In this document: piece by piece, positions 185 through 16,964 of the stretch
Layout: each line of letters starts with the position of its first letter
Numbering within the stretch: the stretch's first letter is position 1
Source: a virus
Reading direction: 5' to 3' (one strand)
DNA length: 30,092 nt
UHGV virus genome: UHGV-0106597
Made by a program: the position numbers and the translations under genes
Notes under the pieces: model-generated
The model's database searches: none
What the model was told of the DNA's origin: nothing
Seen by the model: the letters and a program-made list of their open reading frames with translations, nothing else

Positions 185-194
185 ATTTTTGTGA

Positions 195-413
195 TCACAT
201 CCACATAATTTGCTGCCCTGACGGCAACGGGTGCGGCCTCACGGCGTGGACTTCTCCCGGCTTCACGATGTATCGCTGTACCGACTCATAAGTGATGAAC
301 GTGGCGCTGCAATTCACGTTCTGGCACTGGTGATAACGCTCTTTTGTCGTGTCAGTGATATAGCGGCTTGTACGCGCATGTGCGGCATGCTGGCATAAAG
401 GACAATGAAACAT
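195..413 (-). CDS. ogr: Late transcription activator Ogr, zinc-finger protein (72 aa)
   Basis: Translation MFHCPLCQHAAHARTSRYITDTTKERYHQCQNVNCSATF... recognised as P2 Ogr with its C4 cysteines; ATG at 413..411 chosen over the TTG-initiated longer track ORF. Confidence 0.9.
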   Translation of the reverse strand: MFHCPLCQHAAHARTSRYITDTTKERYHQCQNVNCSATFITYESVQRYIVKPGEVHAVRPHPLPSGQQIMWM

Positions 414-494
414 CGCGAGCACCTCTTCCGGTTTTGTTGATGGTGCCATTTTAGTTAATTTATCCTTATAAAACAAACAGATAAAATAAAAACA

Positions 495-1658: not shown

Positions 1659-2137
1659 TATCCCGCCTCCGTCATACCCGTGAATTTAGTCGCTATACTG
1701 CCAGCCTTACCGATGAGCGATTCCGCCTGTTTACCGATATCGCCATAAAGCGCGGCCAGTGATTCATCAACGCGGGTGAGCGACAGCGTAAAATCAATTT
1801 TTCGGGGTGTGCCGTCTGCAAAGAAAATACTCCCTGTTTCACTCACCTTACTGATGACATACATGCCGTAAATCATGCCGGTGCCATCCAGCAACGGCCA
1901 CGCCCGACCTTCCTCTGCCATCAGCCTGAGCGTGGTCATCGTCAGCTTGCCGCCGGTCAGTTCGGGATAAAGCACACCGGCCAGCGTGATGTTTTCCTCA
2001 CCCACACCGAGAAATTGAAAGGCATCCCGTTTGCCGATACGGGAATTTGACGGCCAGCGATAATCTGATTCACGCTGCATGGTCTGGTGTGGCAGCGTCT
2101 GGCGCATAAAAACAAACATACCTAACGCGAGCATCAT
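1658..2137 (-). CDS. U: Tail protein U
   Basis: 159-aa product, P2 gpU-like, immediately downstream of tape measure gene. Confidence 0.85.
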   Translation of the reverse strand: MMLALGMFVFMRQTLPHQTMQRESDYRWPSNSRIGKRDAFQFLGVGEENITLAGVLYPELTGGKLTMTTLRLMAEEGRAWPLLDGTGMIYGMYVISKVSETGSIFFADGTPRKIDFTLSLTRVDESLAALYGDIGKQAESLIGKAGSIATKFTGMTEAG

Positions 2138-2151
2138 TTTTCGTCACCTCC

Positions 2152-4599
2152 TTAACCGTCATGCATCATGCTGGCACGGGCGCGCGCACGTTTATCCCGC
2201 TCGTATTTTTCGAGTGCATCCTGTAACTGGCGGTCGAGCTGTGTCCCCGGCGCAGTACCGCCCGTCAGGTTGATGTGATATTCGTTTTTACTCTGGTCCA
2301 CATAAGAGCGGCCAGCCGGTGCCGTGACCGGCTGATAAGCCTGATAACCTGCATAAGAGCTGGCCGCCGGAATATAACCACCGGTGCCATACGTGGCGGC
2401 ATGAGTTCTGGCGGCGGTCTGGTCAAGCGTGCCTGACTCTTTGTTGATGACGCCAAGTTTTTCCAGTACCCAGTCAATACCGCCGCGCAGTTTGTTGAAC
2501 GCATTAAGCGGCAGCATCAGCGCGTCAGCCAGTGCCTGCCCGAACATGACGCCCGTGTCACGGCAACGGTTCAGGGTGTCCTGGGTGGCTTTGACCGGGG
2601 CAATCAGGTTTTTAAACCACTGCCACGCGGCCTGTAACTTTTCGCCCAGCCAGTCGAACACCGGCTTAAGTGGCGTGAACAGTTCCCCCACCGGCGCAAA
2701 TGCCGCTTTCAGCCCTTCCACCACACCGCCAAAGAATGCGCTGACAGGCTCCCAGTATTTACGGATAAGCAACGCCCCGGCGACAATGGCGGCCACCACG
2801 GCCACAACCGGCCAGCTAATCGCCCCGATGGCGGTCATAACAGCACTGCCAACCGTCGTGAAGACTGCCCCCATTGCGCCTGCTGCCGCGATGATGGCAT
2901 TGATGCCAGTGATAACCGGCCAGGCTACAAGACCAATGGCACCGATGATGCCAATAAGCGCCAGCGCGCCACCGACAATGAGGCCGATGGTTGACGCCAG
3001 TGATTTGTTTTTCTGGATCCAGCCGTCGAGTTTTAACACATACTTTGTGGCCGTCTGCGTGAGCTTACGCAGTGCGCCTTCCTGCTGGTCAAACAGGTCT
3101 GTCCCCACCGCCTCATAAGCGGACTGAAACTCCTTAAAGTCACCGCCGAGGTTGTCCTGCATGATATTTACCAGCTCGGCAGTCTTCCCGTCTGAGGCTT
3201 TAAACGCAGCGGTCAGTTTGTCCAGCTTTCCGGTTGAGGCGGCAGTCATCAGCACGGCGGCGGCTGAGCTGGCCTCCTCCCCGAAAATAGTTTTCATGTA
3301 TTCAGCCTGCTGGGCAGTACCGAGCCGGTTTTTCTCAAAACTGGCCTGCATTTCTTTCAGAATGGTAAATACTGGCCGGGTGTTTCCCTTGCTGTCTGAG
3401 GTTTTCACACCAAGCTCTTTCAGTGCATCCCATGCTTTTCCCGTCGGTGCCTGCAGGCGGCTTAACACGGCACGGCTTCCCGTCCCCGCCATTGAGCCTG
3501 TGATTTTTGCATCATGCAGCGCCCCGACCATTGCGGCGGTTTCTTCAATGCTGACACCGGCATTTTTTGCCACAGGTGCGGCATAGGTCAGCGCATCGCT
3601 CATGCCGTCAAAATCGGCGGCGGTTTTGTTCATCGTCATGGAGAGAACATCCCCGATATGAGCGACCTTATCGTTTGAAAGCTGAAAGGCGGATTTCATC
3701 CCCATCAGCAGGGCGGCGTTTTCTTCCATCGTGCGGCGGTTCGCCAGCGCCATGTTCAGCGTGACCGGCGTTGCCGCCTGAATGGCATCAACATCCCCAC
3801 CGGCTTTCGCAATAATAATCTGCGCACCGGCCGCATCATCCGCCGAGGCGGCGGTATTGTCGCCGAGCTGGCGCGCCTGTTTGCGTAGCGCGGCCATTTC
3901 GGCGGAATCTTTTGCCACACCGAGCACGGCCTGCAATTCTGAGTTTTTCTGCGCAAACTCATAACCGGGCATCAGCAGCTTAACTCCGGCCATCGTTCCC
4001 GCCGCCGCAATCCCCACACCGGCAGCGCCCACCGAGGCCATATTTCCGGCCAGTTCCTTGCCTGCCTGATAACGCTGTTTGACTGCGTTAAGTTTTGCCT
4101 GTTGCGCACTGACACGCGCCAGCGCGTCGCGCTGACGGTTAAGCTGTGCGGTGGTTTCACTGATACGGTTTTTCAGTCCCTGCTCATCATGTGCAAGATT
4201 GCGGGTATTAATTCCCACAGCGGCCAGTTCCCGCTGCTGGCGCTTAACGGAATCCGTCAGGCGGTTATATTTCGCCTGTAAGTCCTCCGCCGCACGCTTT
4301 GCGGATTCCAGCACTTTCGCCTGAGCACGGGTCGGACGTTCGGTGTTTTTAAACTGTGTGGCAAGGGCTTCAGCTTCCTGCCGAGCCTTTTCAAGTGCAT
4401 GACCAGTCACGGCGAGCTGTGCGCTGGTCTTGCGAAATCCCTCAATACGGGATGCCTGACCGTTCAGCTCGCGCAGTGATTTTTGTGTTTCCCGGATATC
4501 CCCCGACAGCGATTTGCTCGCTGTGCGGATGGATTTAAACGGGCGGGATGCCTGGTCAACAGCCCTGAGCAATACCTGTAATTTTACATTGTTACTCAT
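2152..4599 (-). CDS. T: Tail tape measure protein T
   Basis: 815-aa product with coiled-coil N-terminal part and Gly/Ala-rich hydrophobic central segments; same length as P2 gpT. Confidence 0.9.
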   Translation of the reverse strand: MSNNVKLQVLLRAVDQASRPFKSIRTASKSLSGDIRETQKSLRELNGQASRIEGFRKTSAQLAVTGHALEKARQEAEALATQFKNTERPTRAQAKVLESAKRAAEDLQAKYNRLTDSVKRQQRELAAVGINTRNLAHDEQGLKNRISETTAQLNRQRDALARVSAQQAKLNAVKQRYQAGKELAGNMASVGAAGVGIAAAGTMAGVKLLMPGYEFAQKNSELQAVLGVAKDSAEMAALRKQARQLGDNTAASADDAAGAQIIIAKAGGDVDAIQAATPVTLNMALANRRTMEENAALLMGMKSAFQLSNDKVAHIGDVLSMTMNKTAADFDGMSDALTYAAPVAKNAGVSIEETAAMVGALHDAKITGSMAGTGSRAVLSRLQAPTGKAWDALKELGVKTSDSKGNTRPVFTILKEMQASFEKNRLGTAQQAEYMKTIFGEEASSAAAVLMTAASTGKLDKLTAAFKASDGKTAELVNIMQDNLGGDFKEFQSAYEAVGTDLFDQQEGALRKLTQTATKYVLKLDGWIQKNKSLASTIGLIVGGALALIGIIGAIGLVAWPVITGINAIIAAAGAMGAVFTTVGSAVMTAIGAISWPVVAVVAAIVAGALLIRKYWEPVSAFFGGVVEGLKAAFAPVGELFTPLKPVFDWLGEKLQAAWQWFKNLIAPVKATQDTLNRCRDTGVMFGQALADALMLPLNAFNKLRGGIDWVLEKLGVINKESGTLDQTAARTHAATYGTGGYIPAASSYAGYQAYQPVTAPAGRSYVDQSKNEYHINLTGGTAPGTQLDRQLQDALEKYERDKRARARASMMHDG

Positions 4600-5019
4600 T
4601 CGTGTTTCCGCTTCGCCGGAGCGCCTTTTCGCGCCATGTGATGAGTTCGGTCAGGCTCATGGGATACAGTTCTGATGGCGGCCAGTGAAATATCACTGCC
4701 ACATCCGCCATCAGGTCATCGACCGAGAGATTTTTCGGAAACGTTACTGCACCGAGTTCGGCGACAAAAAACCGACCACCTTACCGGCCAGCGCCACAAG
4801 GTCAGGCAGTTCCAGCGCGGCGACTTCCTGCTCGGTCAGCATCGGTGCCGTCATGCGCGGCAGCACCTTAATCAGTGCATCGACTTCAGAGTTCGCGACC
4901 GCAGCCAGACTGACACCGCGCAGCGTCCCGGCATTGGGTTTCATCAGCGTGACCTGTTCGATAACCTGCTCACCACGCTTGACCGGATTGTCCAGGGTAA
5001 TCACATTTTCTTTGTTCAT
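4592..5019 (-). CDS. Tail assembly chaperone E+E', made by programmed -1 ribosomal frameshift (about 142 aa)
   Basis: Hand translation of the -1 frame after TTTTTTG gives ...VAELGAVTFPKNLSVDDLMADVAVIFHWPPSELYPMSLTELITWREKALRRSGNTNE and a TAA at 4594..4592, overlapping the T start codon. Confidence 0.75.
4744..5019 (-). CDS. E: Tail assembly chaperone E
   Basis: 91-aa product between FII and T; ends ...VVGFLSPNSVQ with the slippery site near its 3' end. Confidence 0.85.
   Translation of the reverse strand: MNKENVITLDNPVKRGEQVIEQVTLMKPNAGTLRGVSLAAVANSEVDALIKVLPRMTAPMLTEQEVAALELPDLVALAGKVVGFLSPNSVQ
4765..4771 (-). other. Slippery heptamer T TTT TTG for the E/E' -1 frameshift
   Basis: Minus-strand sequence GGTCGG TTTTTTG TCGCC, 6 codons before the E stop. 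Confidence 0.75.
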
Positions 5020-5075
5020 GGTTTTCTCACTTATGAATCGGGGTTAACCGGTCAGCCAGGCTGACCGGATGAAAA

Positions 5076-5594
5076 TCACAGGCCGATATTGCGGCGGTGT
5101 TGCTCCAGCCGGTCGACGCCGTTCACCTTCTCAATCATGTTGATGGTGTCGATTTCGACCAGCTCCTTACCGTCCATCGTCAGCCGGAAATAGGTGCAGA
5201 CCACGGAGATTTTCGACTCGGTGTCTTCTCCCTGTTTGCCCTCGCCGGTGTCGATTTCTTTCTGACGTCCACGCATGACCACCTCGACGGCCACCGTTTC
5301 GCCGGTATCGTCGCGCTGGTAAGAGCCTGCAAAACGAATCGGTACGGCATCCACACCGGTTGCGGCGTAAAGCTCCCAGATAACCGAATCCGGGAAGCCA
5401 CCGAGCGACCACTCCATTGACAGCGCATCGTCATCAAGGCCGAGGTCTACCGGTGCGCTGCCGTTCATCCCCGCACCGCGATAGTTTTCGAGCTTACGGG
5501 TCAGTTTTGGCAGCGTAACGGACTTCGCGACGCCCTGATAGCTGTAGCCGTTCAGAAAGACGTTCATTAACTTGAGTTTGCGCGGCATTGCCAT
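5076..5594 (-). CDS. FII: Tail tube protein FII
   Basis: 172-aa product, P2 FII-like, downstream of sheath gene. Confidence 0.9.
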   Translation of the reverse strand: MAMPRKLKLMNVFLNGYSYQGVAKSVTLPKLTRKLENYRGAGMNGSAPVDLGLDDDALSMEWSLGGFPDSVIWELYAATGVDAVPIRFAGSYQRDDTGETVAVEVVMRGRQKEIDTGEGKQGEDTESKISVVCTYFRLTMDGKELVEIDTINMIEKVNGVDRLEQHRRNIGL

Positions 5595-5606
5595 CGGTCA
5601 GGCTCC

Positions 5607-6797
5607 TTAATTGCTGTTAACCGAGGTGACCAGATTTGCCAGGTATTTATCGGTAATACGCTGGCGCAGGGTCAGGTTTTCAAGAGGAGGCACCGGTGTA
5701 TAGTCGTAGTCGATATACAGTTTTCCGGCCTTGAGGGTTTCCGCATCGTTGGATTCTTCGCTGAACCAGCAGGTCGCATCCACGATATAGCCGTTTGTTT
5801 TCAGCTCACGGAATTTGGCATTGATGCCGTCAACGATGTCGCGAATCAGCGTTGCGGTGATGGGCTTGTCCACCGCCCACATGTGCGCCTCAGCCATCGT
5901 GTCGGCCAGCACCTGCGCGGTGCGGGTGTAGTTTTCAAAGAGGAACAGCGGGTCATCAGAGCAGGTACGGTTACCCCAGAATCGGAAACCGTCGCGGCGA
6001 ATCAGCGTAGTGACGCCTGACTCGTTAAGCAGGTCAGCATCGGTGCCGGACTCCTGCAAATCCCAGAATACAGAGGCGCTGATGCCGGTAACACCGTTTA
6101 CCCCGACGTTGGACAGCGTTTTATGCCAGCCCTGCTCCTGGTCGATTTTAGCGCGCAGCCCCAGCGCACGAGCGGTGGCATACGCGGTGGCGGTGGTACT
6201 GGTGACCGTATCCCATGCGAGGAAATCCGGCCAGATGACCATCAGCTCACGCTGGCTGAAATTCTGGCGGTAGGCTTTCACCTCGGAAATGGTCTTACAG
6301 CCCCATGCGCTGATATACCCGAAAGCGCGCAGCTTCTGACAGACTGATGCCAGTGCTACAGCCACCTCTTTGGTATCCAGTCCCGGCACACCAAGAATAC
6401 GCGGTTTAACACCGGTTACCGACTCCGCCGCCAGCAGGGCTTTCAGTCCGGTGTACTGACCGTTTTCGTCGGTGGTGCCGATGATATTGGAAACGGTCTG
6501 CGCAAGTTTCGTTTCTTCGTCGTCGCCGGTGCCGTCCTCCACGCGCACAACAACGGTGACCGGTTTTGACTGGTCGGCGATAGCCTGCAACGATGCCGCC
6601 AGCGTGCCTTTTTTACCGGCCTTTGCAATTGCGCTCTGCACATTGGTAATCAGCACCGGTTTATTGAGGGGGAAGGTTTCCGCATCCGCATCGCTGGCCG
6701 TGCAGACCATGCCAACAATGGCAGTGGATACGGTGGAAATGACGCGGGTGCCGTCGTTAATCTCCAGCACCTGCACGCCGTGATGATAGTCACTCAT
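5607..6797 (-). CDS. FI: Contractile tail sheath protein FI
   Basis: 396-aa product, P2 FI-like. Confidence 0.9.
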   Translation of the reverse strand: MSDYHHGVQVLEINDGTRVISTVSTAIVGMVCTASDADAETFPLNKPVLITNVQSAIAKAGKKGTLAASLQAIADQSKPVTVVVRVEDGTGDDEETKLAQTVSNIIGTTDENGQYTGLKALLAAESVTGVKPRILGVPGLDTKEVAVALASVCQKLRAFGYISAWGCKTISEVKAYRQNFSQRELMVIWPDFLAWDTVTSTTATAYATARALGLRAKIDQEQGWHKTLSNVGVNGVTGISASVFWDLQESGTDADLLNESGVTTLIRRDGFRFWGNRTCSDDPLFLFENYTRTAQVLADTMAEAHMWAVDKPITATLIRDIVDGINAKFRELKTNGYIVDATCWFSEESNDAETLKAGKLYIDYDYTPVPPLENLTLRQRITDKYLANLVTSVNSN

Positions 6798-6856
6798 CCG
6801 TTTAACTCCGTGGTTAATGGGTGAGTGGTATTTTCAGTTGTGCCGGAGATGTCAGG

Positions 6857-7450
6857 CTATTTGTCCCGGTTGGCTAAGGGATGACACAATTTATTCTTTG
6901 TCGCTGATGAGGGGAATTTCTTATAGAGCGTGGACAGGCTAATATCAAAAATCAGCGCCACGCGTTGACGAGATTCCCCCGCAGCCAGCAACCGTCCGAC
7001 CTGCTCCCACTCACTCGCGGTGAGTTTCGGACGTCTGCCACCAATACGACCTTTGGCTCTGGCCGCTTCCAGTCCGGCGCGTGTCCGCTCGACAATGAGT
7101 TCTCGCTCCATTTCAGCCAGGGCACCCATCACATGAAAGAAAAAACGCCCCATCGGCGTGCTGGTATCAATAGCATCCGTCAGACTGCGAAAATTAACGC
7201 CGCGTTCGCGCAGTTCCTCAACCAGAATGACCAGATGCCGCATACTACGCCCCAGCCTGTCCAGCTTCCAGACTACCAGAGTGTCACCTGCTGATAATGT
7301 TCTGAGCAGTTTTTTCAGTCCCGGTCTGTCGGACTTCGTGCCGCTGATTTTATCCTCAAAAATCCGCTCGCATCCTGCGCACTCCAGCGCGTTACGCTGC
7401 AATTCCGTGTTCTGGTCATTTGTTGATACGCGGACATAGCCAATAAGCAT
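6857..7450 (-). CDS. Serine DNA invertase, Hin/Gin/Cin/Pin family
   Basis: N-terminal MLIGYVRVSTNDQ (catalytic Ser motif), resolvase core, C-terminal HTH (...GRRPKLT...STLYKKFP); lies directly beside the invertible segment. Confidence 0.9.
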   Translation of the reverse strand: MLIGYVRVSTNDQNTELQRNALECAGCERIFEDKISGTKSDRPGLKKLLRTLSAGDTLVVWKLDRLGRSMRHLVILVEELRERGVNFRSLTDAIDTSTPMGRFFFHVMGALAEMERELIVERTRAGLEAARAKGRIGGRRPKLTASEWEQVGRLLAAGESRQRVALIFDISLSTLYKKFPSSATKNKLCHPLANRDK

Positions 7451-7505
7451 GATGGATCCCCTGAATAAAAACCGGGGATGATGCCAGTTAGCCGTAATCT
7501 CTGCA

Positions 7506-7531
7506 TTTTCTTAAACGTTGGTTTAGGAGAA
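7506..7531. other. Invertase crossover site, invertase-proximal (hix/gix-like 26-bp imperfect palindrome, core TT at 7518..7519)
   Basis: TTTTCTTAAACG TT GGTTTAGGAGAA; inner half matches the inner half of the site at 9352..9377 in inverted orientation (11/12). Confidence 0.7.
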
Positions 7532-8029
7532 GGCTCAGCATTGCCTGTTGGCGTACCTGTTCCGTGGCCCTCAGCCACTCCGCCAACAGGCTGGCTGAAA
7601 TGCAACGGAGCAGCTTTTTCTGCTGAAGAATACCCGGAACTGGCAAAGGCTTACCCGACAAATAAATTGCCTGATTTACGTGGTGAGTTTATTCGTGGCT
7701 GGGATGACGGACGTGGTATGGATACGGGGAGGGCAATATTATCAGCTCAGGGCGATGCCATACGTAATATCTATGGTGAGTTCAAGACTGTAAACACCGA
7801 AAATTATTCAATATGGGAATCAGTAGGCTCTTTTAAGGGGGCAGTGGTGCCTTTGAACCCCTCAACGAACAATAGTTATTTCTCCTTAATCAGAAGTATG
7901 GTGACAGAAAGAACAGATGGCGCTGTTTACCCAAAAGTGATTGGCCTTGATGCTTCAAGAATTGTTCCAACTGCAAACGAAAACCGACCTCGTAACATTG
8001 CCTTTAATTATATCGTGAGGGCTGCCTGA
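7520..8029 (+). CDS. Alternative tail fibre C-terminal segment (Sv'-like), promoterless and silent in this orientation; contains a phage tail collar-type domain
   Basis: Reading frame opens at the crossover site (..GLGEGSALPVGVPVPWPSATPPTGW...); in-frame fusion to H constant part is predicted after inversion. Confidence 0.7.
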   Translation, partial: GLGEGSALPVGVPVPWPSATPPTGWLKCNGAAFSAEEYPELAKAYPTNKLPDLRGEFIRGWDDGRGMDTGRAILSAQGDAIRNIYGEFKTVNTENYSIWESVGSFKGAVVPLNPSTNNSYFSLIRSMVTERTDGAVYPKVIGLDASRIVPTANENRPRNIAFNYIVRAA

Positions 8030-8631
8030 TGAATAAAGCCGTATTAAATAACGAACTCATTGCCATAAAAGCGGGAGACATAACCGTTTATAATTATGAT
8101 GGTGAAACGCGGGAATATATTTCCACATCAACTGAATATCTTGCGGTTGGCGTCGGTATACCGGCATGTTCTTGTTTAGATGCACCAGTTACACATAAAG
8201 CTGGTTATGCAATCTGCCGTTCTGCAGATTTTAACTCATGGGAATATGTGCCAGACCATCGCGGTGAAATCATCTATAGCACCGAAACAGGAGAATCGAA
8301 AGAAATCACAGCTCCGGGTGATTACCCTGAAAATACAACCACTATCGCCCCGTTAACGCCATATGATAAATGGGATGGTGAGAAATGGGTGACGGATACC
8401 GGGGCACAGCATAGCGCCGCAGTAGATGCAGCAGAAGCACAGCGCCAGTCGCTGATTGATACTGCAATGGCTTCCATCAGTCTGATTCAACTGAAATTGC
8501 AGGCCGGACGTAAACTGACGCAGGCAGAAACCACCCGACTTAACGCTGTGCTGGATTACATTGACGCGGTGACGGCAACAGATACCAGCACCGCGCCGGA
8601 TGTCATCTGGCCTGAACTGCCGGAGGCGTAG
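8029..8631 (+). CDS. Alternative tail fibre assembly chaperone (U'-like)
   Basis: 200-aa product with Tfa-like conserved C-terminus (...DTSTAPDVIWPELPEA); start overlaps Sv' stop (TGATG). Confidence 0.75.
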   Translation: MNKAVLNNELIAIKAGDITVYNYDGETREYISTSTEYLAVGVGIPACSCLDAPVTHKAGYAICRSADFNSWEYVPDHRGEIIYSTETGESKEITAPGDYPENTTTIAPLTPYDKWDGEKWVTDTGAQHSAAVDAAEAQRQSLIDTAMASISLIQLKLQAGRKLTQAETTRLNAVLDYIDAVTATDTSTAPDVIWPELPEA

Positions 8632-9061
8632 GCCATTCAATATCTGGCGCACTGGAGGTATCAACCAGTTCCAGTGCGTTCAGATAATCCAGCCACAAAT
8701 TATATTGCGCCAGTTCCTCACCATTCAGACGACCAATAGCCGCTTTACCAGGCCATTGTTTACTGTTCATGTATTCGTTGGCATGGTTAATCAATAATTG
8801 CCTCTCTGATTCGGCCTGTTCAATAAGTTCCTCATGTGATGGTGGAGGTATTTCAACCCATGCAGGATTGCCATAACCGTCCGACCCTCTGATTTTTCCA
8901 GTCGGCGGGAATCCTAAAAACTCGGTTGCATCCTCCTCGCTAATATCAGTGAATGTGGCGATTTCATCTTCGCTCAATTTATAATCGGAAATTGACGCAG
9001 CAGGATAGAATAATGCATTCTTTGGATCAAATTTATACATTTCAATCACCCCGCTATCCAT
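8603..9061 (-). CDS. G: Tail fibre assembly chaperone (P2 G / Mu U-like), active orientation
   Basis: 152-aa product ending ...DTSSAPDIEWPTPPAVQAR; 3' end overlaps the convergent U' gene by 29 bp. Confidence 0.8.
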   Translation of the reverse strand: MDSGVIEMYKFDPKNALFYPAASISDYKLSEDEIATFTDISEEDATEFLGFPPTGKIRGSDGYGNPAWVEIPPPSHEELIEQAESERQLLINHANEYMNSKQWPGKAAIGRLNGEELAQYNLWLDYLNALELVDTSSAPDIEWPTPPAVQAR

Positions 9062-10191
9062 CTGTATGCGACTGGCATACTTCCAACCTGTGAAACAGAA
9101 AACCCCTGCCTCGATTTTCGCAACACATTTACGGCCCCTTTATTTGCTCCTGTATCTGCTGCACAAACGATAACTTCGAAATCGTCATACGGAAATGGTA
9201 TCGGGAATAAAATGTTGGTTTGGCTTGATGTCATAGCAAATCCCCGCTGTATTATTCTCCCCGACGGGTCTCTATTCCATCCTGTCCCAGATGTCCATTC
9301 TGACATACTAGGTATCTGATTTTCCCCTGTTCCCACATTCCGTTTTGCCGCTTCTCCCAAACCAAGGTATGCGAGAAGACCGGCAACATCCTTTCCGCTC
9401 AAATGAGTCAGCGTCTCATCCAGTGGCTGCTTACCTGACAGCGCATTGTTAATAGTGGTACTGAATTTCGGGTCATTGTTAATGGCTGCGGCAATTTCTT
9501 TCAGTGTATCCAGCGTGGCAGGCGCACCGTTAATCAGAGCGGTAATAGCGGCCTGTACAAACGCAGTGGTCGCAATCCGCGTGGTGTTATTTCCTGCGGC
9601 AGGCGTCGGCGCTTTTGGTTCTCCGGTAAATGTCGGATTATGTTTCTGCGCATACTGGGTATGAGGATCCTGTGCGGCAATGTGGTTTCTCATCTGGTCA
9701 TCCACATACAGCCTTAATTCCAGGACTTCATCATCCACGTATTTACGGGTCGCCAGTACCACTGACGGGTCGATTTTCAGCGTGATAGCTGCGGTATTCG
9801 TGACAACCAGAATCATGCGGATAGTCTGGGTACGACCACTGCCTTCCTGCAACTGCGGTTTGTACGTTTCCGGGCAGTTCGCCACCGCAATGAGTACGCC
9901 TTCATCATCATAAAGCCCAATCTCACGGATCCAGAATCCGCCCTCGTTCTCAGGGATGATTTGCTCCGCAATAATCTGGCTCTGGTTGTTCGGGTCAACA
10001 CTCAGAAGATTCAGCGGCGCGATGCGTTTCTGGTTAATCAGTTTTGTCTGTGCCGGGTCTGGTGTCGGCAAGACACCATTCGCATCACCAACGGCCATTT
10101 GCGTCAGATTCAGCTTACTGCCGAGCATCGTCGCGTTAGCCAGCCGTGCCGCGCCCTGATTAGTCAGAATGGCGTAGTATTTCACTGTCAT
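9046..10191 (-). CDS. H: Tail fibre protein H (constant N-terminal part fused to the currently selected variable C-terminus Sv)
   Basis: 381 aa; N-terminus similar to P2 gpH (..MAVGD..GGFW.RE.GLYDD.G.LIAVAN..E.YKP...EGSGR); crossover site lies at codons 273-281. Confidence 0.85.
   Translation of the reverse strand: MTVKYYAILTNQGAARLANATMLGSKLNLTQMAVGDANGVLPTPDPAQTKLINQKRIAPLNLLSVDPNNQSQIIAEQIIPENEGGFWIREIGLYDDEGVLIAVANCPETYKPQLQEGSGRTQTIRMILVVTNTAAITLKIDPSVVLATRKYVDDEVLELRLYVDDQMRNHIAAQDPHTQYAQKHNPTFTGEPKAPTPAAGNNTTRIATTAFVQAAITALINGAPATLDTLKEIAAAINNDPKFSTTINNALSGKQPLDETLTHLSGKDVAGLLAYLGLGEAAKRNVGTGENQIPSMSEWTSGTGWNRDPSGRIIQRGFAMTSSQTNILFPIPFPYDDFEVIVCAADTGANKGAVNVLRKSRQGFSVSQVGSMPVAYRWIAG
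9352..9377. other. Invertase crossover site inside H (core AA at 9364..9365 on plus strand)
   Basis: TTCTCCCAAACC AA GGTATGCGAGAA; encodes LAYLGLGE of H; half-site pattern TT.TC..AAACC resembles hix/gix half-sites. Confidence 0.7.
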
Positions 10192-10799
10192 GCGTTTACT
10201 CTCAGGTTATCAATTAAATGAATGGCCGAGGCCGGGAAATAATCCCCTCCGACAATAATGGCCTCCGGGGTGTAGGGATAAACCGTCAGGGCGTCGCCGT
10301 GATAGCATCCCGCACCGGCAAAAATGTTGCCGGTTGTACTTAAACTGATAGCCAGTCCCGTCAGATGGCGGCTTGCCGGTTTTGCATCAGCAACGAGGCG
10401 CTCCAGCTCCTGATACATTTCCTCGGTAATACCCTGCTCAAGCACGCCAACAACGATACGGAACGTCCCCGGCTCCTCATTGAGTTGCCACCACTCCCTC
10501 ACCTCAATCAGATAGCCGAGCGGCTCCACCACACGCCGGATTGCGCCTATAGTGCCCTTATGGCAGTGAATGAAATACGCATCGCGGATAACAGCGCGTT
10601 TTGTCGCTTCCGGCCATTTATCATCCCAGCGGTCAACCGAAAATGACCACGCCAGCCACGGCAGCAGATTTGCCGGGCAGGTGTCCGGGTTCCACAGCTC
10701 ACGAATACTGACCGGCGTTTTTTCAATTTCCGCACAGGCTTTTGCGGCGGCAACTTCAAGCGGCGATGAGCCGGTTGGCAGCAGGCGCGAATCACTCAT
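10188..10799 (-). CDS. I: Baseplate assembly protein I
   Basis: 203-aa product between J and H, P2 order. Confidence 0.8.
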   Translation of the reverse strand: MSDSRLLPTGSSPLEVAAAKACAEIEKTPVSIRELWNPDTCPANLLPWLAWSFSVDRWDDKWPEATKRAVIRDAYFIHCHKGTIGAIRRVVEPLGYLIEVREWWQLNEEPGTFRIVVGVLEQGITEEMYQELERLVADAKPASRHLTGLAISLSTTGNIFAGAGCYHGDALTVYPYTPEAIIVGGDYFPASAIHLIDNLRVNA

Positions 10800-11700
10800 C
10801 CGAGCCTCCGGTCACGACGCTGTATTCGGTGCAGAAAGACGCCTGCGTATTGTTAAGCACGATGTCGGCCAGCGGTGCAGCCAGTTCGACACGCTGCACG
10901 CCTTCCACATGCAAAGCGGCATAAATGGCAGACAGACGGATGTCGCGCCCCAGCCGGTGCTGTGCCGTGATGTACGCTTCCAGTTTTTTCACGGCAGCAG
11001 CGCGGATGGGTTCGCTTTCTGGACCAGGGTAAAGATACAGCGTGGCGTTTATCTGGTATTCAACAATGGCGGCAGACTGCACGGTCACACGGTCAGCCAC
11101 CGGCCTGACGTCCTCGCCATTAAGGGCGTTACGCACCACAGCCAGCAGGTCTTCGGATGCGACACCGTTATTTTCACGTGACAGCACGGAGATGGTGACG
11201 CAGGCCGGAGACGGACTGGTGACAGAGATATCCGCGACACGCCCGTCGGCACTGCGGCCATGATACTGATAGGCTCCCACCGACCCGGCGACGCTTAAGC
11301 CCTCAAACGCCTGCTGAATACGCAGACGATAATCGGTGTCAGACTCCATCACTGCCGGTGTCGGCGGGAGGGTCGAATCATCTGCCGGGGTGATAATCAG
11401 GCGCGTGGTGTTGTAATTGGCACCAATCACATCAAGGTCATTACCGGCGGCACAGGCCAGCATTACCGCCCGTGCGGCCTCATTCACACGCTGACGCCAG
11501 ATAAGCTCACGATAAGCATTTTCCTCCAGCAGTTTGACGAGAGGCTCGGATTCCAGCGTCAGGGTACGGGCAACCGCCTCCTGCTGGTCTTCCGGGTAAA
11601 GGGAAATCAGTGTCGCCTTGCGTTCGGCAAGAATGGTTTCAAAGTCCAGCTCCTCGACCACATCCGGTGCGGGTAGCTGGTTCAGGTCGATAATCGGCAT
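10792..11700 (-). CDS. J: Baseplate assembly protein J
   Basis: 302-aa product, P2 gpJ-like. Confidence 0.85.
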   Translation of the reverse strand: MPIIDLNQLPAPDVVEELDFETILAERKATLISLYPEDQQEAVARTLTLESEPLVKLLEENAYRELIWRQRVNEAARAVMLACAAGNDLDVIGANYNTTRLIITPADDSTLPPTPAVMESDTDYRLRIQQAFEGLSVAGSVGAYQYHGRSADGRVADISVTSPSPACVTISVLSRENNGVASEDLLAVVRNALNGEDVRPVADRVTVQSAAIVEYQINATLYLYPGPESEPIRAAAVKKLEAYITAQHRLGRDIRLSAIYAALHVEGVQRVELAAPLADIVLNNTQASFCTEYSVVTGGSDE

Positions 11701-11704
11701 GGTT

Positions 11705-12052
11705 TCAACTCACAGGGATGGTTAACGAAAGTGGCTGGCCGGTATCGTTGTGCTGGCCGGTTAACGTGACCGTCATTCGCCCGTCAAAACTGCGCTCAGT
11801 GGTGACGGATGACAGGGTGACGCGGGGTTCCCATTTCAGCACCGCCATGTAACAGGCGACCTTAATCTGCAACTCAAGCGCCGGGGTCTGCGGCTGGTCA
11901 ATCATTGACGCCAGCAATGAGCCGTAATCACGACGCATCACCCGTGAGCCGACCGGCGTGCGCAGGATATCGCCGATACTCTGGCTGATATGCTCAAGGT
12001 CAGTGACAGTCAGGCCATCACTGCGATTCATTCCAAGATAACGCGCTGTCAT
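11705..12052 (-). CDS. W: Baseplate assembly protein W (gp25-like)
   Basis: 115-aa product, position and size as P2 gpW. Confidence 0.85.
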   Translation of the reverse strand: MTARYLGMNRSDGLTVTDLEHISQSIGDILRTPVGSRVMRRDYGSLLASMIDQPQTPALELQIKVACYMAVLKWEPRVTLSSVTTERSFDGRMTVTLTGQHNDTGQPLSLTIPVS

Positions 12053-12684
12053 AGAGGACTCCCGGTTGTGCCGCCGCTGTCGCCGGGGTGTTTATGGGTA
12101 TGCAGTACCTTACCGTTTGATGAGAGTTCACCGCCGGTATGTTTAATGTTGCCGCGCATCGTCCCGCCCTTCTGCACTTCCAGCGTGCCGGTAATCAGTC
12201 TGTTGGTGCAGACCACCTCCGGGGTGTCCAGGGTGATGCGGGTTGACGCTTTCACCATGACCACCGGCACCGTGGCAGTAACAGAATCAGAAGCCGTCAC
12301 GCTGGCCGTTTTAATTCCGCTTACCGTGAGTGCACTGGTTTCGGGTTCATACTCAATCACCGCCCCGTCAGGGAAACGGATATGCAGGGCATCCGCCGAC
12401 GCAGACGGCGCGGGGTTATCGCCGGAATAAATCCCCGGCAGAACGAACGCCGTGTCGAGTTCACCGCCCACGGCCAGAATCAGCACCTGTTCCCCCACGG
12501 AAGGTGCCCACCATGTGCGCGAACGTCCGGCGCGATGGGTCAGCCACTGAAGCCAGTCGGTGCACATGCCGCCGGTCTGGACACGGCAGCGACCGGCGTT
12601 AAGGTCGGTTTCGACGATAATGCCGGTGCGGATCATGTTGCGCAGTGCGCGCGCGAGTTCCTGAATATTTGCGAGAGTGTTCAT
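12049..12684 (-). CDS. V: Baseplate spike/assembly protein V
   Basis: 211-aa product, P2 gpV-like. Confidence 0.85.
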   Translation of the reverse strand: MNTLANIQELARALRNMIRTGIIVETDLNAGRCRVQTGGMCTDWLQWLTHRAGRSRTWWAPSVGEQVLILAVGGELDTAFVLPGIYSGDNPAPSASADALHIRFPDGAVIEYEPETSALTVSGIKTASVTASDSVTATVPVVMVKASTRITLDTPEVVCTNRLITGTLEVQKGGTMRGNIKHTGGELSSNGKVLHTHKHPGDSGGTTGSPL

Positions 12685-12750
12685 AACGGGAAGGATGCCG
12701 CCGGGTCATACCGGCGGCAATGTGACGATGAGGTGTCGGGAATGGCACAA

Positions 12751-13203
12751 CTAACGGTCGAGGTGCGCCAGAATAATCTCTTCAATCATCTGCACATCCT
12801 CACCGGTAAAGCCGAGCAGGGGACGCGCCGGATAATCAATTTTCTTACCGTCTTTCCGGTTTTCTTCCGACAGACCGAACTGATGCACACTGGCGATTTT
12901 CGGTGACTTCCCGCCGTAAAACTCCATTGATGCCTGTTCCGGGCTGGCGCGGATATGCAAAAAACGACTGGTGATAAGTTTCGCAAACATTTTTCGCTTA
13001 ACACGACCAGTCTTTTTTCTGGCGCTCTGCTGCTGGCGTGGCGCGTAGGGTGTGCCGTCCGGGGCTTTCTGAGCCATCACCCGACGCTGCTGACTCTGCC
13101 GCAGACGTTTCGCCAGTTCGGCACTCAGTCGCCGACGCCCTGACGGTGACAGCGATTCAATCAGTCCGGTCAGCCGGTCTTCAAAACGCTTAAACTCATT
13201 CAT
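12751..13203 (-). CDS. S: Tail completion protein S
   Basis: 150-aa product, P2 order R-S-V. Confidence 0.8.
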   Translation of the reverse strand: MNEFKRFEDRLTGLIESLSPSGRRRLSAELAKRLRQSQQRRVMAQKAPDGTPYAPRQQQSARKKTGRVKRKMFAKLITSRFLHIRASPEQASMEFYGGKSPKIASVHQFGLSEENRKDGKKIDYPARPLLGFTGEDVQMIEEIILAHLDR

Positions 13204-13663
13204 CCCACTTGCTCACCAGTTCGCCATTGATATAAAGCTCCACCGGGCGGGTGACCGGCTCCGGCGGCGGGGGTTCCGGGATATTCTTCACATGCAGTGC
13301 GCCGTCCACCTCACTGACCAGCGTTCGCTCGGTCAGCATCAGGCTGATGCTGATATCAAAGCTGCTGTCATTGTTGATGTCTGCATAAAACGTGAAGCCC
13401 TTTTTCTGGCCTTCGTCGGTGGTCATGATGTCGGGCTGATTTTCCCGCAGCCACGCCAGCACCGGCACGATGAGCAGGTCAAAATCACCGGTAAAGTCGG
13501 TCACAATGACATTGAGCGTGTAACGCTTTTCGAATGACAGCGACGTCGCCAGTGTGGAGGCAATACTCCCGTTATCCACGAATATCCGCAGCATATCGGG
13601 GTTAGTTTTCAGTACCGTGACGGCATCAGTCAGCGCCCTGCGCAGGCTGTCGGGTTTGAGCAT
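13196..13663 (-). CDS. R: Tail completion protein R
   Basis: 155-aa product. Confidence 0.8.
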   Translation of the reverse strand: MLKPDSLRRALTDAVTVLKTNPDMLRIFVDNGSIASTLATSLSFEKRYTLNVIVTDFTGDFDLLIVPVLAWLRENQPDIMTTDEGQKKGFTFYADINNDSSFDISISLMLTERTLVSEVDGALHVKNIPEPPPPEPVTRPVELYINGELVSKWDE

Positions 13664-13916
13664 CGTTTTCGTCCTGACAGTGTTTAATCATTTTTACCTG
13701 GCTGGCACAGCGCGCCAGCGCGTTCTCAAGCTGCCGGATATCGGCACTTAAATCGCCGTTCGTCTGCGGGTCACTGCCCGGCATCGGGCAAAGGCTCACT
13801 TTCGGGCAGGCGTTGTGGACAATCACTGGCGTCGGTGCAGGCGGGGCGCTGGTGCAACCGGCGCACAGCATCAGGCAGGTCATCGCCGTACCAGCGGCGA
13901 AAATCTTCGTTTTCAT
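13626..13916 (-). CDS. lysC: LysC, Rz1-like outer-membrane lipoprotein spanin, out of frame across the lysB 3' region and the R start
   Basis: MKTKIFAAGTAMTCLMLCAGC lipobox signal followed by proline-rich segment; ATG at 13916..13914. Confidence 0.7.
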   Translation of the reverse strand: MKTKIFAAGTAMTCLMLCAGCTSAPPAPTPVIVHNACPKVSLCPMPGSDPQTNGDLSADIRQLENALARCASQVKMIKHCQDENDAQTRQPAQGAD

Positions 13917-14196
13917 TGAGTAACCTCGTGATGGTTTTCTCGCGCTGTGCTTCACGCTTCGCGGCGTTCTCCAGTTCCTGACGCAGTGCCACCTGCGCCA
14001 GCTCGTTTTTGTCTGCCCTGGTGATGGCAACATGAAGCTGATTTTTCAGCATGGTGATGGTCGTCTGCTGTTCACTGGCGACGTTATTCGCCCTGTCCAG
14101 CGAGGCGCGCAGGCTGGCATTTTTGTGTTTCACCAGAAACAGACCGGCCACCGCCAGCGATAACAACACGACCAGCACAATCATCAGCTTTGACAT
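13771..14196 (-). CDS. lysB: LysB, Rz-like inner-membrane spanin
   Basis: 141 aa, N-terminal transmembrane helix then coiled-coil region. Confidence 0.8.
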   Translation of the reverse strand: MSKLMIVLVVLLSLAVAGLFLVKHKNASLRASLDRANNVASEQQTTITMLKNQLHVAITRADKNELAQVALRQELENAAKREAQREKTITRLLNENEDFRRWYGDDLPDAVRRLHQRPACTDASDCPQRLPESEPLPDAGQ

Positions 14197-14609
14197 AATT
14201 CCCGCCCCTCAAGACGCTGACGACAGGCTTTACGTATCAGCCGGAAAAACAGCGACGCCACAAGATAAATCAGCGCGGTAAAAATCCATCCGGCGGCGAC
14301 CAGCGAGATAAATGTCGCCACCATCGCCACCAGAGCCACTGCCCGTCTGCACCACGGCACCGGCTGCAAAAACAGCGACGTGACAATCTTCACGGCCAGC
14401 GATTCCGGTGGCAGCTCCCGCCCGTAGCGTTCCAGCACATACTCAGTGGCATACACGCCGACACCACCGGCAACCACACAGATAACCGTCGCCAGAATCG
14501 CCCAGGCGGCGACAAAATTGACGGCCACGCTCTGCGGGTAAATCAGGGACAGTGCCAGCATCAGCGCCAGCGACACATTCAGCATCAGTGAAAGGGATAA
14601 TTTCTTCAT
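14184..14609 (-). CDS. lysA: LysA, membrane protein of the lysis cassette
   Basis: 141 aa with several hydrophobic helices, between K and lysB. Confidence 0.75.
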   Translation of the reverse strand: MKKLSLSLMLNVSLALMLALSLIYPQSVAVNFVAAWAILATVICVVAGGVGVYATEYVLERYGRELPPESLAVKIVTSLFLQPVPWCRRAVALVAMVATFISLVAAGWIFTALIYLVASLFFRLIRKACRQRLEGRELCQS

Positions 14610-14623
14610 GGTGTTTACTCCGT

Positions 14624-15121
14624 TTAAGCTGGTACACCGCCGGCGGTACGCCAGACGGTGACCAGTTTTTCCAGTGAATGCTCACGCTGACCGTAACCGG
14701 CACCCGGCAGGGACGCCCAGATATTGCGACAGCGTGAAATGGCGCGCTCAATGCGTCCCGCCCGGATGTCATCCAGTGCACCGCGTTCGCGGATCAACTG
14801 AATGGCGAGCCTGTCCTGTGACAACGGACTGAAATCCGGCAGGGCAAGCTGTTTGCGGTAGTGCGGCCAGAACAGGTAAAGCTGCTGATAGCGACCGGAG
14901 GCCGTGGATTTTTCACCGCGACGGTTAAACACCTTCGCCGGTCGGCCATGCGCGAACGGGTGGTCACTGTAGTCAGTGAAAATTTCCGGCTTCCCGTCCA
15001 GTCCGGTGACTATCACGTCATAGCCCCGGTTTTTCGTCAGCGGATGATTCGCCGTCCCTTCGGACACGGCCAGCATGTCGAGAAAGGCGGCGATATTCTG
15101 ATGCGTGTTAATTACCGGCAT
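14624..15121 (-). CDS. K: Endolysin K (lysozyme)
   Basis: 165-aa product, P2 gpK-like, directly after holin. Confidence 0.85.
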   Translation of the reverse strand: MPVINTHQNIAAFLDMLAVSEGTANHPLTKNRGYDVIVTGLDGKPEIFTDYSDHPFAHGRPAKVFNRRGEKSTASGRYQQLYLFWPHYRKQLALPDFSPLSQDRLAIQLIRERGALDDIRAGRIERAISRCRNIWASLPGAGYGQREHSLEKLVTVWRTAGGVPA

Positions 15122-15402
15122 TACGGTTTCCCCCTGCCCTTAAAGCGGCGCTGAATGGCAATCTCAATCACCTGATAACCGGCGATACCCAGCATGGAGC
15201 CGATGCCGCACACCGCAGGCAGTGACAGGTCAGGAAACTGCACCAGAACAACACCGGCAACCATCGAGACAAAACCACCGAGCAACATGCGCCCGATAAA
15301 CAGACGCGGGGTGATGGGTTCACCACCGGCAAGCACCTTGCCGACAACAATCAGCACCCCAATCATGAAAAGCGACAGGACGCTTTTTTCTTCTGCTGTC
15401 AT
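15121..15402 (-). CDS. Y: Holin Y
   Basis: 93-aa product with transmembrane segments and charged C-terminus. Confidence 0.85.
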   Translation of the reverse strand: MTAEEKSVLSLFMIGVLIVVGKVLAGGEPITPRLFIGRMLLGGFVSMVAGVVLVQFPDLSLPAVCGIGSMLGIAGYQVIEIAIQRRFKGRGKP

Positions 15403-15405
15403 GCG

Positions 15406-15609
15406 TTACTCCCACAGATTGACAGTTTCAGCCACGGGCGCGGTCTGAACATCGGGCAGTTCGACGGCGGTGCCGTGTGGCAGCACCACACCCAGTTCAG
15501 CCAGTCCCGGATTTGCGGCGAGCACGGTCTCAACCACGCCCTCAGTGCGCCCGTAATACCGGACACAAATGGCGTCGAGCGTGTCGCCCTGTAGCGCAAA
15601 GGTCTTCAT
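15406..15609 (-). CDS. X: Tail protein X (67 aa)
   Basis: MKTFALQGDTLDAICVRYYGRTEG...; ATG at 15609..15607 chosen over the longer track ORF. Confidence 0.8.
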   Translation of the reverse strand: MKTFALQGDTLDAICVRYYGRTEGVVETVLAANPGLAELGVVLPHGTAVELPDVQTAPVAETVNLWE

Positions 15610-16118
15610 CAGATTTGACTCACGATGCAGCGCGGCTTGTCCTGGATACGCGCCACCGCCCAGCGCATATCCCGCCACAGTTCATCGATGGTGCTGTCAA
15701 TGCTGTCAGCCTTCTTGTCGCCTTTCGCACTGGCATCCACGCCGCGGTAACGCTCATAAAGCGACGCGGTCGCCATCGCACACACGGCGCGCTCGTAGTA
15801 AAAAACCTTGATGCTTTCACCGTCGATGTCGTCCGCCGGGACGTCCGCCAGACGCGTAAAACCGGCGGCAATTTTCTGTTCGCGGTACTCGTACAGCTCC
15901 GCATTCGTCTCCGCCATGCCTGACTTGATGGCCTCACGCAGACGGGCGGGGGCGACGGTCTGCTCAAGGCGCATACGTTCCCGGACGCGCTTCGGGTCGA
16001 TATCGGGAAAAAAGAACGTGTTTTTAATCACCGGCTCGTCGCCTGCCGGTTGCGGGATGACCACCGTACCCTCACCGGACACGGGAGCCTCCTTTCGCGG
16101 AATAATCAGCGTCATCAT
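15609..16118 (-). CDS. L: Capsid completion protein L
   Basis: Product starting MMTLIIPRKEAPVSGEG..; ATG at 16118 chosen. Confidence 0.8.
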   Translation of the reverse strand: MMTLIIPRKEAPVSGEGTVVIPQPAGDEPVIKNTFFFPDIDPKRVRERMRLEQTVAPARLREAIKSGMAETNAELYEYREQKIAAGFTRLADVPADDIDGESIKVFYYERAVCAMATASLYERYRGVDASAKGDKKADSIDSTIDELWRDMRWAVARIQDKPRCIVSQI

Positions 16119-16217
16119 GACTACCTCTGAAAAGTCGGGCGGTGGACGCCGGTGCAGTGTCAGGTGATTCACCCTCACTGACCGGCGTGCCGCCCTGGCG
16201 CGGGGCGCATTCGGTTG

Positions 16218-16961: not shown

Positions 16962-16964
16962 CGG

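Follow-up and report, generated by a model that had tools for sequence, protein, structure and literature searches.

A probable Pin/Gin-type inversion switch of the tail-fibre tip in a P2-like Escherichia coli prophage

Does a prophage that carries an invertase gene next to its tail-fibre locus switch the tip of its fibre by turning a DNA segment around, and is such a switch still at work? This question is raised by a stretch of 30,092 nucleotides, virus genome UHGV-0106597, which is referred to as a whole as the window. The original prediction, made from the letters alone, comprised an invertase, two crossover sites, an alternative tip that could be fused in frame, a silent Collar-type tip plus chaperone, and the lack of all this in canonical P2; each of these elements has held. 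The locus is very probably an active site-specific inversion switch of the Pin/Gin type in a P2-like prophage of E. coli. It probably swaps the tip of the tail fibre and, by doing so, would change the host range.

The P2-like context and the two fibre cassettes

The window has the gene order of P2 and a high identity to it across the structural, lysis and replication modules, as is expected for a P2-like phage (Peduovirus). At the DNA level, 95-98% identity to P2 is found over positions 105-6877, 10363-12684, 12749-22118 and 23940-28189. The block that does not derive from P2 extends from 6878 to 10362, and therefore P2 H, G and the end of I have been replaced, in addition to Z/fun. The proposal that the module stands in place of Z/fun is thus correct in that Z/fun is gone and P2 lacks the module, but it is too narrow, since the other fibre-region genes have been replaced as well. 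P2 homology starts again at 6877, where the window reads TTGTGTCATCCCTTAGCCAACCGG as compared to TTGTGCTGTCGATTAGCCAACCGG in P2 pF and TTGTGTCAGTGATAAGCCATCCGG in P2 pO/pP. Rfam and tRNA scans of the entire window gave zero matches, and PADLOC gave no meaningful match for the invertase and the hotspot ORFs. The features of the locus are the following.

6857-7450, minus strand: serine DNA invertase of the Pin/Gin/Cin/Hin family, 197 amino acids (Pfam, identity and structure match)
6866-6894, minus strand: counterpart of the binding site for Ogr, the late-promoter activator, in P2 pF, within the final codons of the invertase ORF (P2 homology)
7361-7432, minus strand: candidate recombinational (Fis) enhancer, invertase coding nucleotides 19-90
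7478-7519, plus strand: short stub ORF (MMPVSRNLCIFLNV), beginning outside the segment and running in frame into the invertase-proximal cassette
7506-7531: invertase-proximal crossover site, 12-2-12, TTTTCTTAAACG-TT-GGTTTAGGAGAA (minus strand TTCTCCTAAACC AA CGTTTAAGAAAA)
7518-9365: invertible segment, 1848 bp, core to core inclusive
7520-8029, plus strand: alternative fibre C-terminus (Sv'), at present unjoined to the fibre gene (Pfam Collar, 8e-16)
8029-8631, plus strand: TfaE-like chaperone U' for the alternative tip (Pfam Caudo_TAP, 2e-32)
8603-9061, minus strand: chaperone U of the currently expressed tip (Pfam Caudo_TAP, 5e-31)
9046-10191, minus strand: fibre ORF H, with a Phage_tail_fib N-terminus and a Gp53-like_C end
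9046-9363, minus strand: currently expressed fibre C-terminus (Sv), a gp53-like domain in frame with the constant part (Pfam Gp53-like_C, 3e-07)
9352-9377: distal crossover site, within the fibre gene, TTCTCCCAAACC-AA-GGTATGCGAGAA
9364-10191, minus strand: constant N-terminal part of fibre H (Hc), codons 1-276 (Pfam Phage_tail_fib, 2e-62)

Inside the segment, two pairs of fibre tip and chaperone converge, and the 3' ends of U and U' overlap by 29 bp (8603-8631). All five gene calls are backed by Pfam. The ORF with the Collar domain was called as 7478-8029 (plus strand), and the RefSeq homologue of chaperone U begins at an internal ATG at 9040 (145 amino acids). The alternative tip resembles StfE and the Stf of HK97, its DNA being 86-89% identical to e14 stfE and HK97 stf, while U' is named tfaE by RefSeq in identical genomes and is 89% identical at the DNA level to e14 tfaE. 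According to Pfam, the two tips have unrelated folds, Collar versus gp53-like C. For the Sv tip, tblastn against phage records returned only uncharacterised prophage fibres and no characterised phage fibre, and a characterised receptor turned up for neither tip. The length of the segment is typical, as relatives span 1.45-2.5 kb, and the same architecture is present in 54 of 79 related viral contigs.

The crossover core makes up the second and third positions of H codon 276 (CTT, Leu), after which the fibre reads G-L-G-E. Inversion had been predicted to join the constant part in frame to the alternative tip, and turning the segment around in silico indeed yields an open fibre ORF, which grows from 381 to 445 amino acids. 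The same fusion exists in nature: in E. coli 13P477T, Sv' is fused in frame to Hc in a 1338-nt gene annotated by RefSeq as 'phage tail protein', the 445-residue form. The constant N-terminus thus lies outside the segment and two opposed cassettes of C-terminus and chaperone lie inside it, each of them fusing in frame.

The invertase, its crossover sites and a candidate enhancer

The product of the gene at 6857-7450 matches Pfam Resolvase (8e-53) and HTH_7 (1e-13), and is 86% identical to PinE of e14, 79% to Gin of Mu and 78% to Cin. In a PDB search, Gin 3uj3 ranks first among solved structures (E=3e-94), as compared to 3e-33 for gamma-delta resolvase. Both the identities and the structures place the protein nearer to proven invertases than to resolvases. 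An inactivating mutation would have spoken against a working switch, but the ORF is intact and all key residues are kept: Ser9 lies within YVRVSTNDQ, and R42, H106 and M114 are all in place. In Hin, contacts with Fis and the enhancer are made by invertase-specific residues, namely K47, K/R48 and K/R51 of helix B and, in the DNA-binding domain, Q151, R154 and L155 of helix 1 (McLean et al. 2013, PMC3798978). The window's invertase has K46, K47, R50, Q150, R153 and L154, Gin numbering being Hin numbering minus 1. At its C-terminus, the protein has a 13-residue extension relative to PinE, which reads into the P2 pF promoter.

Both 26-bp crossover strings occur exactly where they had been placed, and their inner halves are reverse complementary at 11 of 12 positions, as proposed. 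They form the longest inverted repeat within 6800-10300. Each is an imperfect dyad of the 12-2-12 type; the two are inverted with respect to each other and, once aligned in this way, share the core dinucleotide AA. A degenerate pattern of half-site plus core, TTCTCCYAAACCAA, has only two copies in the 30-kb window, on opposite strands and with 0 mismatches; shuffled sequence gave 0.40 matches even when 2 mismatches were tolerated. A third site, which would make the locus shufflon-like as in one P2-like prophage of EPEC, was also considered and rejected, as there are only these two matches to half-site plus core, and other candidates have at least 3-4 mismatches, which is at chance level.

When the sites are aligned to known ones, they resemble P1 cix and come very close to e14 pix, whereas Mu gix differs. 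The proximal site is identical at 24 of 26 positions to the e14 site beside pinE, and its start lies 81 nt ahead of the invertase ATG in almost all 79 related viral contigs. The distal site, TTCTCCCAAACC AA GGTATGCGAGAA, is found again in related contigs, for example L036.

A Fis enhancer may be located in the 5' part of the invertase gene. The candidate stretch has the position of the enhancer annotated in P1 cin (nt 19-90), to which it is 79% identical, and it is 75-86% identical to gin, cin and pinE as compared to 67-78% in the remainder of the gene. Among 73 unique relatives of the invertase, synonymous variation is nearly nil at codons 9-13 and 26-31, a pattern that is no more than suggestive of an enhancer (Mann-Whitney p about 0.02-0.04, a weak test on non-independent sequences). 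This set was used because a count of synonymous codons in four genes was too small. An ad hoc scan for Fis motifs in the opening 170 nt of four invertase genes was non-discriminating.

Natural orientations and competing explanations

Detection of one orientation only would have weighed against a switch. Instead, both are found in complete E. coli genomes with the predicted junctions, a statement that holds at the level of the population. In the orientation of the window, the 3451-bp region is covered for 100% in four complete E. coli genomes. The construct inverted in silico is likewise fully covered in four complete genomes, three of which match it as a single piece with 100.0% identity. At a coverage of at least 80%, 56 genomes have the orientation of the window versus 67 with the inverted one. 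One of the inverted genomes is 13P477T, whose prophage is that of the window, inserted at an identical chromosomal site (fieF/ogrK) and 99.8-99.97% identical; the sole structural difference with the window is an inversion of 7518-9368. The junction sequences restrict the exchange to 7518-7524, TTGGTTT, 7 bp around the core. The segment therefore inverts by exchange at the core, as seen at the population level across genomes.

The enzyme that performs the inversion in vivo is presumably the product of the adjacent gene. Flipping could also be done mainly in trans by the invertases of other prophages (PinE, PinQ, PinR or Gin-like), with the adjacent gene being dispensable or weakly expressed. 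This possibility has a precedent in E. coli K-12, where PinQ of Qin inverts the P segment of e14 more efficiently than the cognate PinE (PMC12529663). Moreover, the sites of the window are nearly identical to those of e14, and most E. coli genomes match the region several times (median, 2 places per genome). Set against this are the intact state of the adjacent invertase, its 81-nt spacing from the site, fixed in nearly all relatives, and its co-travelling with the segment in 79 viral contigs. On balance, inversion mainly in trans appears unlikely.

It could also be imagined that the main benefit of the switch lies in the lysogen and not in the host range of the virion. A truncated tip, translated from the stub, would mask a receptor and block other phages. 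The stub ATG, 14 codons ahead of the crossover, is kept in frame in 46 of 49 distinct upstream variants, Mu and e14 among them. Furthermore, StfE2 of e14, which consists of the same stub and a flipped-in tip, is reported to block adsorption of T2 (PMC12529663), and the tip in the window has 86-89% DNA identity to stfE. The conservation could equally be that of the opposite strand, on which the stub reads TGGCATCAT, a putative -10 element of the invertase promoter; the conserved ATGATGCCA corresponds to TGGCATCAT when read on that strand, and its position suits an invertase -10. The stub peptide varies freely among the upstream variants, and thus there is no sign of selection as a protein. P1, in which cin has the opposite orientation, lacks the stub ATG. 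The phage has a complete P2-like genome, in which the fibre genes are needed for virions, and no promoter for the stub was found in the consensus scan of 6700-10400. A main benefit in the lysogen is therefore considered improbable. Quite improbable is the specific proposal that the invertase-proximal cassette is not silent, the stub giving a low level of truncated tip and chaperone in the lysogen and the inversion toggling a receptor-masking, anti-phage function. If it were true, receptor masking would generally be expected wherever an intact prophage has a Pin/Gin-type fibre switch, and these classic switches would be linked to prophage-encoded defence.

An active switch also has to be distinguished from a frozen relic, in which the orientations would stem from events long past or from homologous recombination among prophages, present-day lysogens having ceased to flip. 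The evidence on orientation is between genomes, at the population level, and the consensus scan for promoters and terminators in 6700-10400 recognised no convincing sigma-70-like promoter upstream of the invertase (the same scan showed a weak hairpin at 7489-7470), both of which would suit a relic. Yet identity is 100% over 3451 bp in both orientations, the counts are balanced (4:4 and 56:67), the invertase ORF is intact with all of its key residues, the junctions coincide exactly with the core dinucleotide, and inversion of homologous loci has been seen in cultures (PMC4272514; PMC12529663), so that a relic seems very improbable. An artefact of assembly, in which the assembler chose either orientation from a mixed population, is barely credible, as the genomes are all complete and stem from projects independent of one another, the junctions match the core precisely, and the polymorphism of the inner half-site (A or G at 7525) fits a true reciprocal exchange; besides, an assembler choosing between two populations of reads implies that both orientations were present.

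Related switches and meaning for the phage

The active inversion switch proposed here was likened in the original prediction to the G segment of Mu. Gene order and logic are indeed shared (Sc | Sv-U / U'-Sv' | gin, where gin points away from the segment), Gin is 79% identical, and the stretch upstream of the invertase ATG is partly conserved. The core of gix is TC/GA instead of AA, however, the half-sites differ as well, and the G segment measures 3 kb with fibre genes that are unrelated to those in the window. The nearest relative is the Pin/P segment of e14, because of the near-identical pix sites, an invertase 86% identical to PinE, and the DNA identity of 86-89% between the segment's left half and stfE/tfaE.

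In E. coli K-12, this P segment has the order stfP-tfaP / tfaE-stfE / pinE. Its invertase gene likewise points away from the segment, at an equal spacing, the site beside pinE, TTCTCCCAAACC AA CGTTTATGAAAA, is almost alike to TTCTCCTAAACC AA CGTTTAAGAAAA, tfaP and tfaE overlap tail to tail by 29 bp just as U and U' do, and the segment has 1797 bp compared to 1848 bp. There are differences too: e14 is what remains of a lambdoid prophage, defective and with its fibre gene truncated, whereas the window has a complete P2-like genome and a P2-type fibre N-terminus, and its gp53-like tip and chaperone are unrelated to stfP/tfaP. The C segment of P1 is similar with respect to Cin (78% identical) and to its cix half-sites, TTCTCTTAAACC AA, which have the same AA core. 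In P1, however, the arrangement is the opposite, with cin reading toward the segment and cixL overlapping the 3' end of cin, and the segment has 4.2 kb with inverted repeats of 0.6 kb. Hin of Salmonella, with its hix sites, belongs to the same enzyme family, with 26-bp sites and Fis/enhancer control, and the invertase-specific residues that were defined in Hin are kept in the window. Hin flips a promoter instead of coding cassettes, though, and hin itself is inside the segment. Work by Kutsukake et al. in 2006 reportedly concerns Fin of Fels-2.

A module of this type at the same place in P2-like phages is already known. In P2-like prophages of EPEC E2348/69, sequencing and PCR have established that the tail-fibre locus inverts (Goldberg et al. 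2014, PMC4272514), and the Z/fun hotspot often encodes a DNA invertase, with adjacent genes inverted (iLund4u preprint, bioRxiv 10.1101/2024.10.15.618418). The loci of EPEC E2348/69, of pro483 and of the 'P2' of O157:H43 T22 lie at the same place, between the fibre genes and FI, and have the same gene content with an annotated invertase; only the tip pair differs. Phage pro483 covers 80% of the region with 93% identity. One of the EPEC prophages has three sites and four variants, in contrast to the two sites of the window.

Taken together, a mechanism can be proposed. Dimers of the invertase would bind the two inverted 26-bp sites, make 2-bp staggered cuts at the AA core and rotate the 1848-bp segment, probably assisted by host Fis bound at the enhancer in the 5' part of the invertase gene. 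In the orientation of the window, the late pV operon would give the 381-residue fibre, made up of Hc and the gp53-like tip, along with chaperone U. The opposite orientation would give the 445-residue fibre, in which Hc is followed by the StfE-like tip with its Collar domain, along with the TfaE-like chaperone U'. Since the form of the fibre would depend on the orientation, a population of lysogens would release virions of two types, most likely with different receptors.

The locus type is on record in the literature and therefore represents no novelty: it is a textbook kind of bet-hedging switch for phage host range at a position that is known already, and has little weight as a discovery. Identical sequences are already in RefSeq, with annotation. 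Its value lies in how such loci are to be read. What looks in one orientation like a 'phage tail protein' fragment with a second chaperone is no set of pseudogenes but consists of halves of a switchable gene, and assemblies that differ only by the orientation of the segment should not be counted as structural variants.

Two orientations of the fibre segment

A set of 5,426 complete E. coli genomes was searched with the region from 6800 to 10250, in its native and in an in-silico inverted form. The native orientation reaches 100% query coverage in four genomes (H31-H34) and 100.0% identity in two of these, and the inverted construct reaches 100% in four others (H71-H74), three of these four full-length matches being in one piece and 100.0% identical. 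At a coverage of at least 80%, 56 genomes have the orientation of the window and 67 the inverted one. The two orientations envisaged in the original prediction are both found, at the population level, among complete E. coli genomes. All five genes proposed for the region are backed by Pfam, and the two strings put forward as crossover sites are found in the window as follows:

6857-7450, minus strand: invertase, resolvase and HTH_7 domains
7478-8029, plus strand: Collar-domain fragment
8029-8631, plus strand: Caudo_TAP chaperone
8603-9061, minus strand: Caudo_TAP chaperone
9046-10191, minus strand: fibre, P2-type N-terminal domain and gp53-like C-terminus
7506-7531: crossover site 1 (proximal), TTTTCTTAAACG-TT-GGTTTAGGAGAA
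9352-9377: crossover site 2 (distal), TTCTCCCAAACC-AA-GGTATGCGAGAA

These sites form the longest inverted repeat of 6800-10300. The window of 30 kb holds exactly two copies of the 14-mer TTCTCCYAAACCAA, one per strand and both free of mismatches; a shuffle control tolerating two mismatches gave 0.4 matches. Two bases tell the sites apart: the final one of the outer half and the sixth of the inner half. The core dinucleotide corresponds to positions 2 and 3 of fibre codon 276 (Leu), with G-L-G-E next, and the claimed in-frame fusion holds: flipping 7518-9365 in silico yields an uninterrupted fibre of 445 aa, versus 381 aa at present.

The prophage of E. coli 13P477T, one of the inverted examples, occupies the same chromosomal site as the window prophage, beside fieF and ogrK. 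Identity to the window is 99.97% for one side and 99.8% for the other, and the inversion of 7518-9368 is the sole structural difference. Because the two sites differ at two bases, the junction sequences of 13P477T confine the exchange point to 7518-7524 (TTGGTTT), core included. Such junctions are the product expected if a serine invertase cleaves at the core, and on this population-level evidence the switch has operated very recently.

Invertase, candidate enhancer and stub reading frame

With PinE of the K-12 cryptic prophage e14 the invertase shares 86% identity, with Mu Gin 79% and with P1 Cin 78%. Its best relative of solved structure is Gin 3uj3 (E=3e-94), with resolvases far behind. Besides Ser9 and R42, it carries K46, K47, R50, Q150, R153 and L154 (Gin numbering), six positions specific to Fis/enhancer-dependent invertases (McLean et al., PMC3798978). 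In the P1 record the recombinational enhancer is placed at cin nt 19-90; the equivalent stretch, 7361-7432, shares 75-86% identity with gin, cin and pinE, and the rest of the gene 67-78%. In a set of 73 distinct relatives, codons 9-13 and 26-31, two patches about 50 nt apart, show almost no synonymous variation, and such variation is lower in the first 30-35 codons than in the rest (p ~0.02-0.04, for sequences that are not independent). This pattern fits two embedded candidate Fis sites, without amounting to proof.

The protein has 197 aa in place of 184-188 aa, the excess being a 13-residue C-terminal extension. P2 homology on the FI side resumes within the final codons; the extension is translated pF late-promoter region, the last 12 or so codons being P2 backbone DNA, and includes:

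within 6857-6894, minus strand: intact-looking Ogr-binding site of pF, TTGTGTCATCCCTTAGCCAACCGG, inside the invertase C-terminal codons

Of 79 related viral contigs, 22 encode the 197-aa form. In 21 of these it is followed by P2-type FI sequence, and the remaining one, L008, stops at the contig edge; in contig L024 FI is also downstream, but the invertase ORF is truncated. Invertase and FI tail-sheath operon share a strand and are 59 bp apart, so that invertase transcription could read on into the late tail operon.

A short reading frame faces away from the invertase:

7478-7519, plus strand: 14-codon stub ORF, MMPVSRNLCIFLNV, beginning outside the segment on the invertase side

It is in frame with whichever cassette adjoins the invertase. 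Of 49 distinct upstream variants, 46 have kept an ATG at this position, Mu and e14 among them, and the stub peptide sequence varies freely; P1, where cin faces the opposite way, lacks the stub. StfE2 of e14, made up of stub and flipped-in tip, is reported to block T2 adsorption (PMC12529663). The conserved ATGATGCCA reads TGGCATCAT on the opposite strand, at the -10 position expected for the invertase promoter. It is conceivable, and quite improbable, that the 'silent' cassette is expressed. The divergent start codons of invertase and stub are 27 bp apart (gap 7451-7477), and therefore the invertase promoter must overlap both stub and crossover site. The Shine-Dalgarno-like GGGGAT/ATCCCC motifs of the two starts can pair into a hairpin.

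A known type of switch in a P2-like prophage

In essence the window amounts to a complete P2-like prophage; its tail, baseplate, head, lysis and replication modules are 95-98% identical in DNA to those of P2. The non-P2 block spans 6878-10362 and takes in invertase and segment, all of H and the end of I. Given this extent, the module does stand in place of fun(Z), as proposed, but not of fun(Z) alone, since P2 H and G are replaced too.

P2 differs elsewhere as well. At the old and tin position of P2, known as a hotspot of anti-phage defence, the window has unrelated DNA (22148-23939). It holds a candidate for a defence or moron gene of uncharacterised type, for which no match was found in Pfam or PADLOC:

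22282-23178, minus strand: 298-aa ORF, 'hypothetical protein' in the 13P477T prophage

Between S and V (12685-12748) the nonessential P2 orf30 (P2 9439-10224) is missing, with only about 64 bp between the P2-homologous blocks. The immunity and integration module (28190-30092) is unlike that of P2:

28191-28478: Cox-family protein
28600-28893: HTH repressor

The integrase is only 70-80% identical to that of P2, in patches, and the prophage site adjoins fieF/ogrK, not the P2 attachment sites.

The comparison with the Mu G segment holds for the logic of the switch, but the closest known system is the e14 Pin/P segment, judging from the enzyme, the sites, the left-half DNA and the chaperone overlap. 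In DNA the left half (Collar tip and chaperone) shares 86-89% identity with e14 stfE/tfaE and HK97 stf/tfa. The e14 sites are nearly those of the window, the proximal one being the same at 24 of 26 positions; P1 cix resembles the sites of the window and has the AA core in common, whereas the core of Mu gix is different. The 3' ends of the two convergent chaperone genes share 29 bp (8603-8631), exactly as do those of e14 tfaP and tfaE (K-12 1208517-1208545), with a conserved C-terminal motif, ...APD(I/V)(E/I)WP..., at the overlap. This shared overlap suggests that cassette pairs are swapped as units, joined at that motif.

Among the 79 related contigs, the proximal site nearly always starts 81 nt ahead of the invertase ATG; in 54 there are exactly two inverted sites, separated by 1.45-2.5 kb, and a few contigs carry three. 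By this comparison the window counts as an ordinary member. A separate 37-kb element of the 13P477T strain, CP019275.1 (37,446 bp), has invertase, fibre and chaperone genes at 22398-24736, which match 68% of the region at 92% identity. Its tip is 100% identical to Sv, the tip now expressed in the window; the same cassette thus circulates between mobile elements within one cell.

An invertible tail-fibre switch at a P2-like locus is not new. The tail-fibre loci of two P2-like prophages of EPEC E2348/69, one two-state and one four-state, invert in culture, as shown by sequencing and PCR (Goldberg et al. 2014, PMC4272514), and the Z/fun hotspot of P2-like phages often has a DNA invertase with adjacent genes inverted (2024 preprint, 10.1101/2024.10.15.618418). 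pro483 is one of the phage records in which invertase and both fibre/chaperone pairs are annotated, and RefSeq genomes hold identical DNA, likewise annotated. The observation is confirmed, its interpretation is supported with small corrections, and the mechanism is well grounded.

Proposed mechanism and host range

According to the scheme based on Hin and Gin (PMC3798978), invertase dimers at both sites and Fis at the enhancer would form an invertasome on supercoiled DNA. Both sites would be cut at the 2-bp core, one subunit pair would turn 180 degrees and the ends would be religated. PinQ, a related invertase, inverts the e14 P segment in trans (PMC12529663), and the adjacent invertase gene therefore need not be the sole enzyme here. 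The late pV operon would give the constant N-terminus Hc joined to Sv, together with chaperone U, or Hc joined to the alternative tip Sv', together with U'. As no characterised receptor was found for either tip, we infer the change in host range, which is likely; the domains of the two tips are unrelated, so that they likely recognize different receptors.
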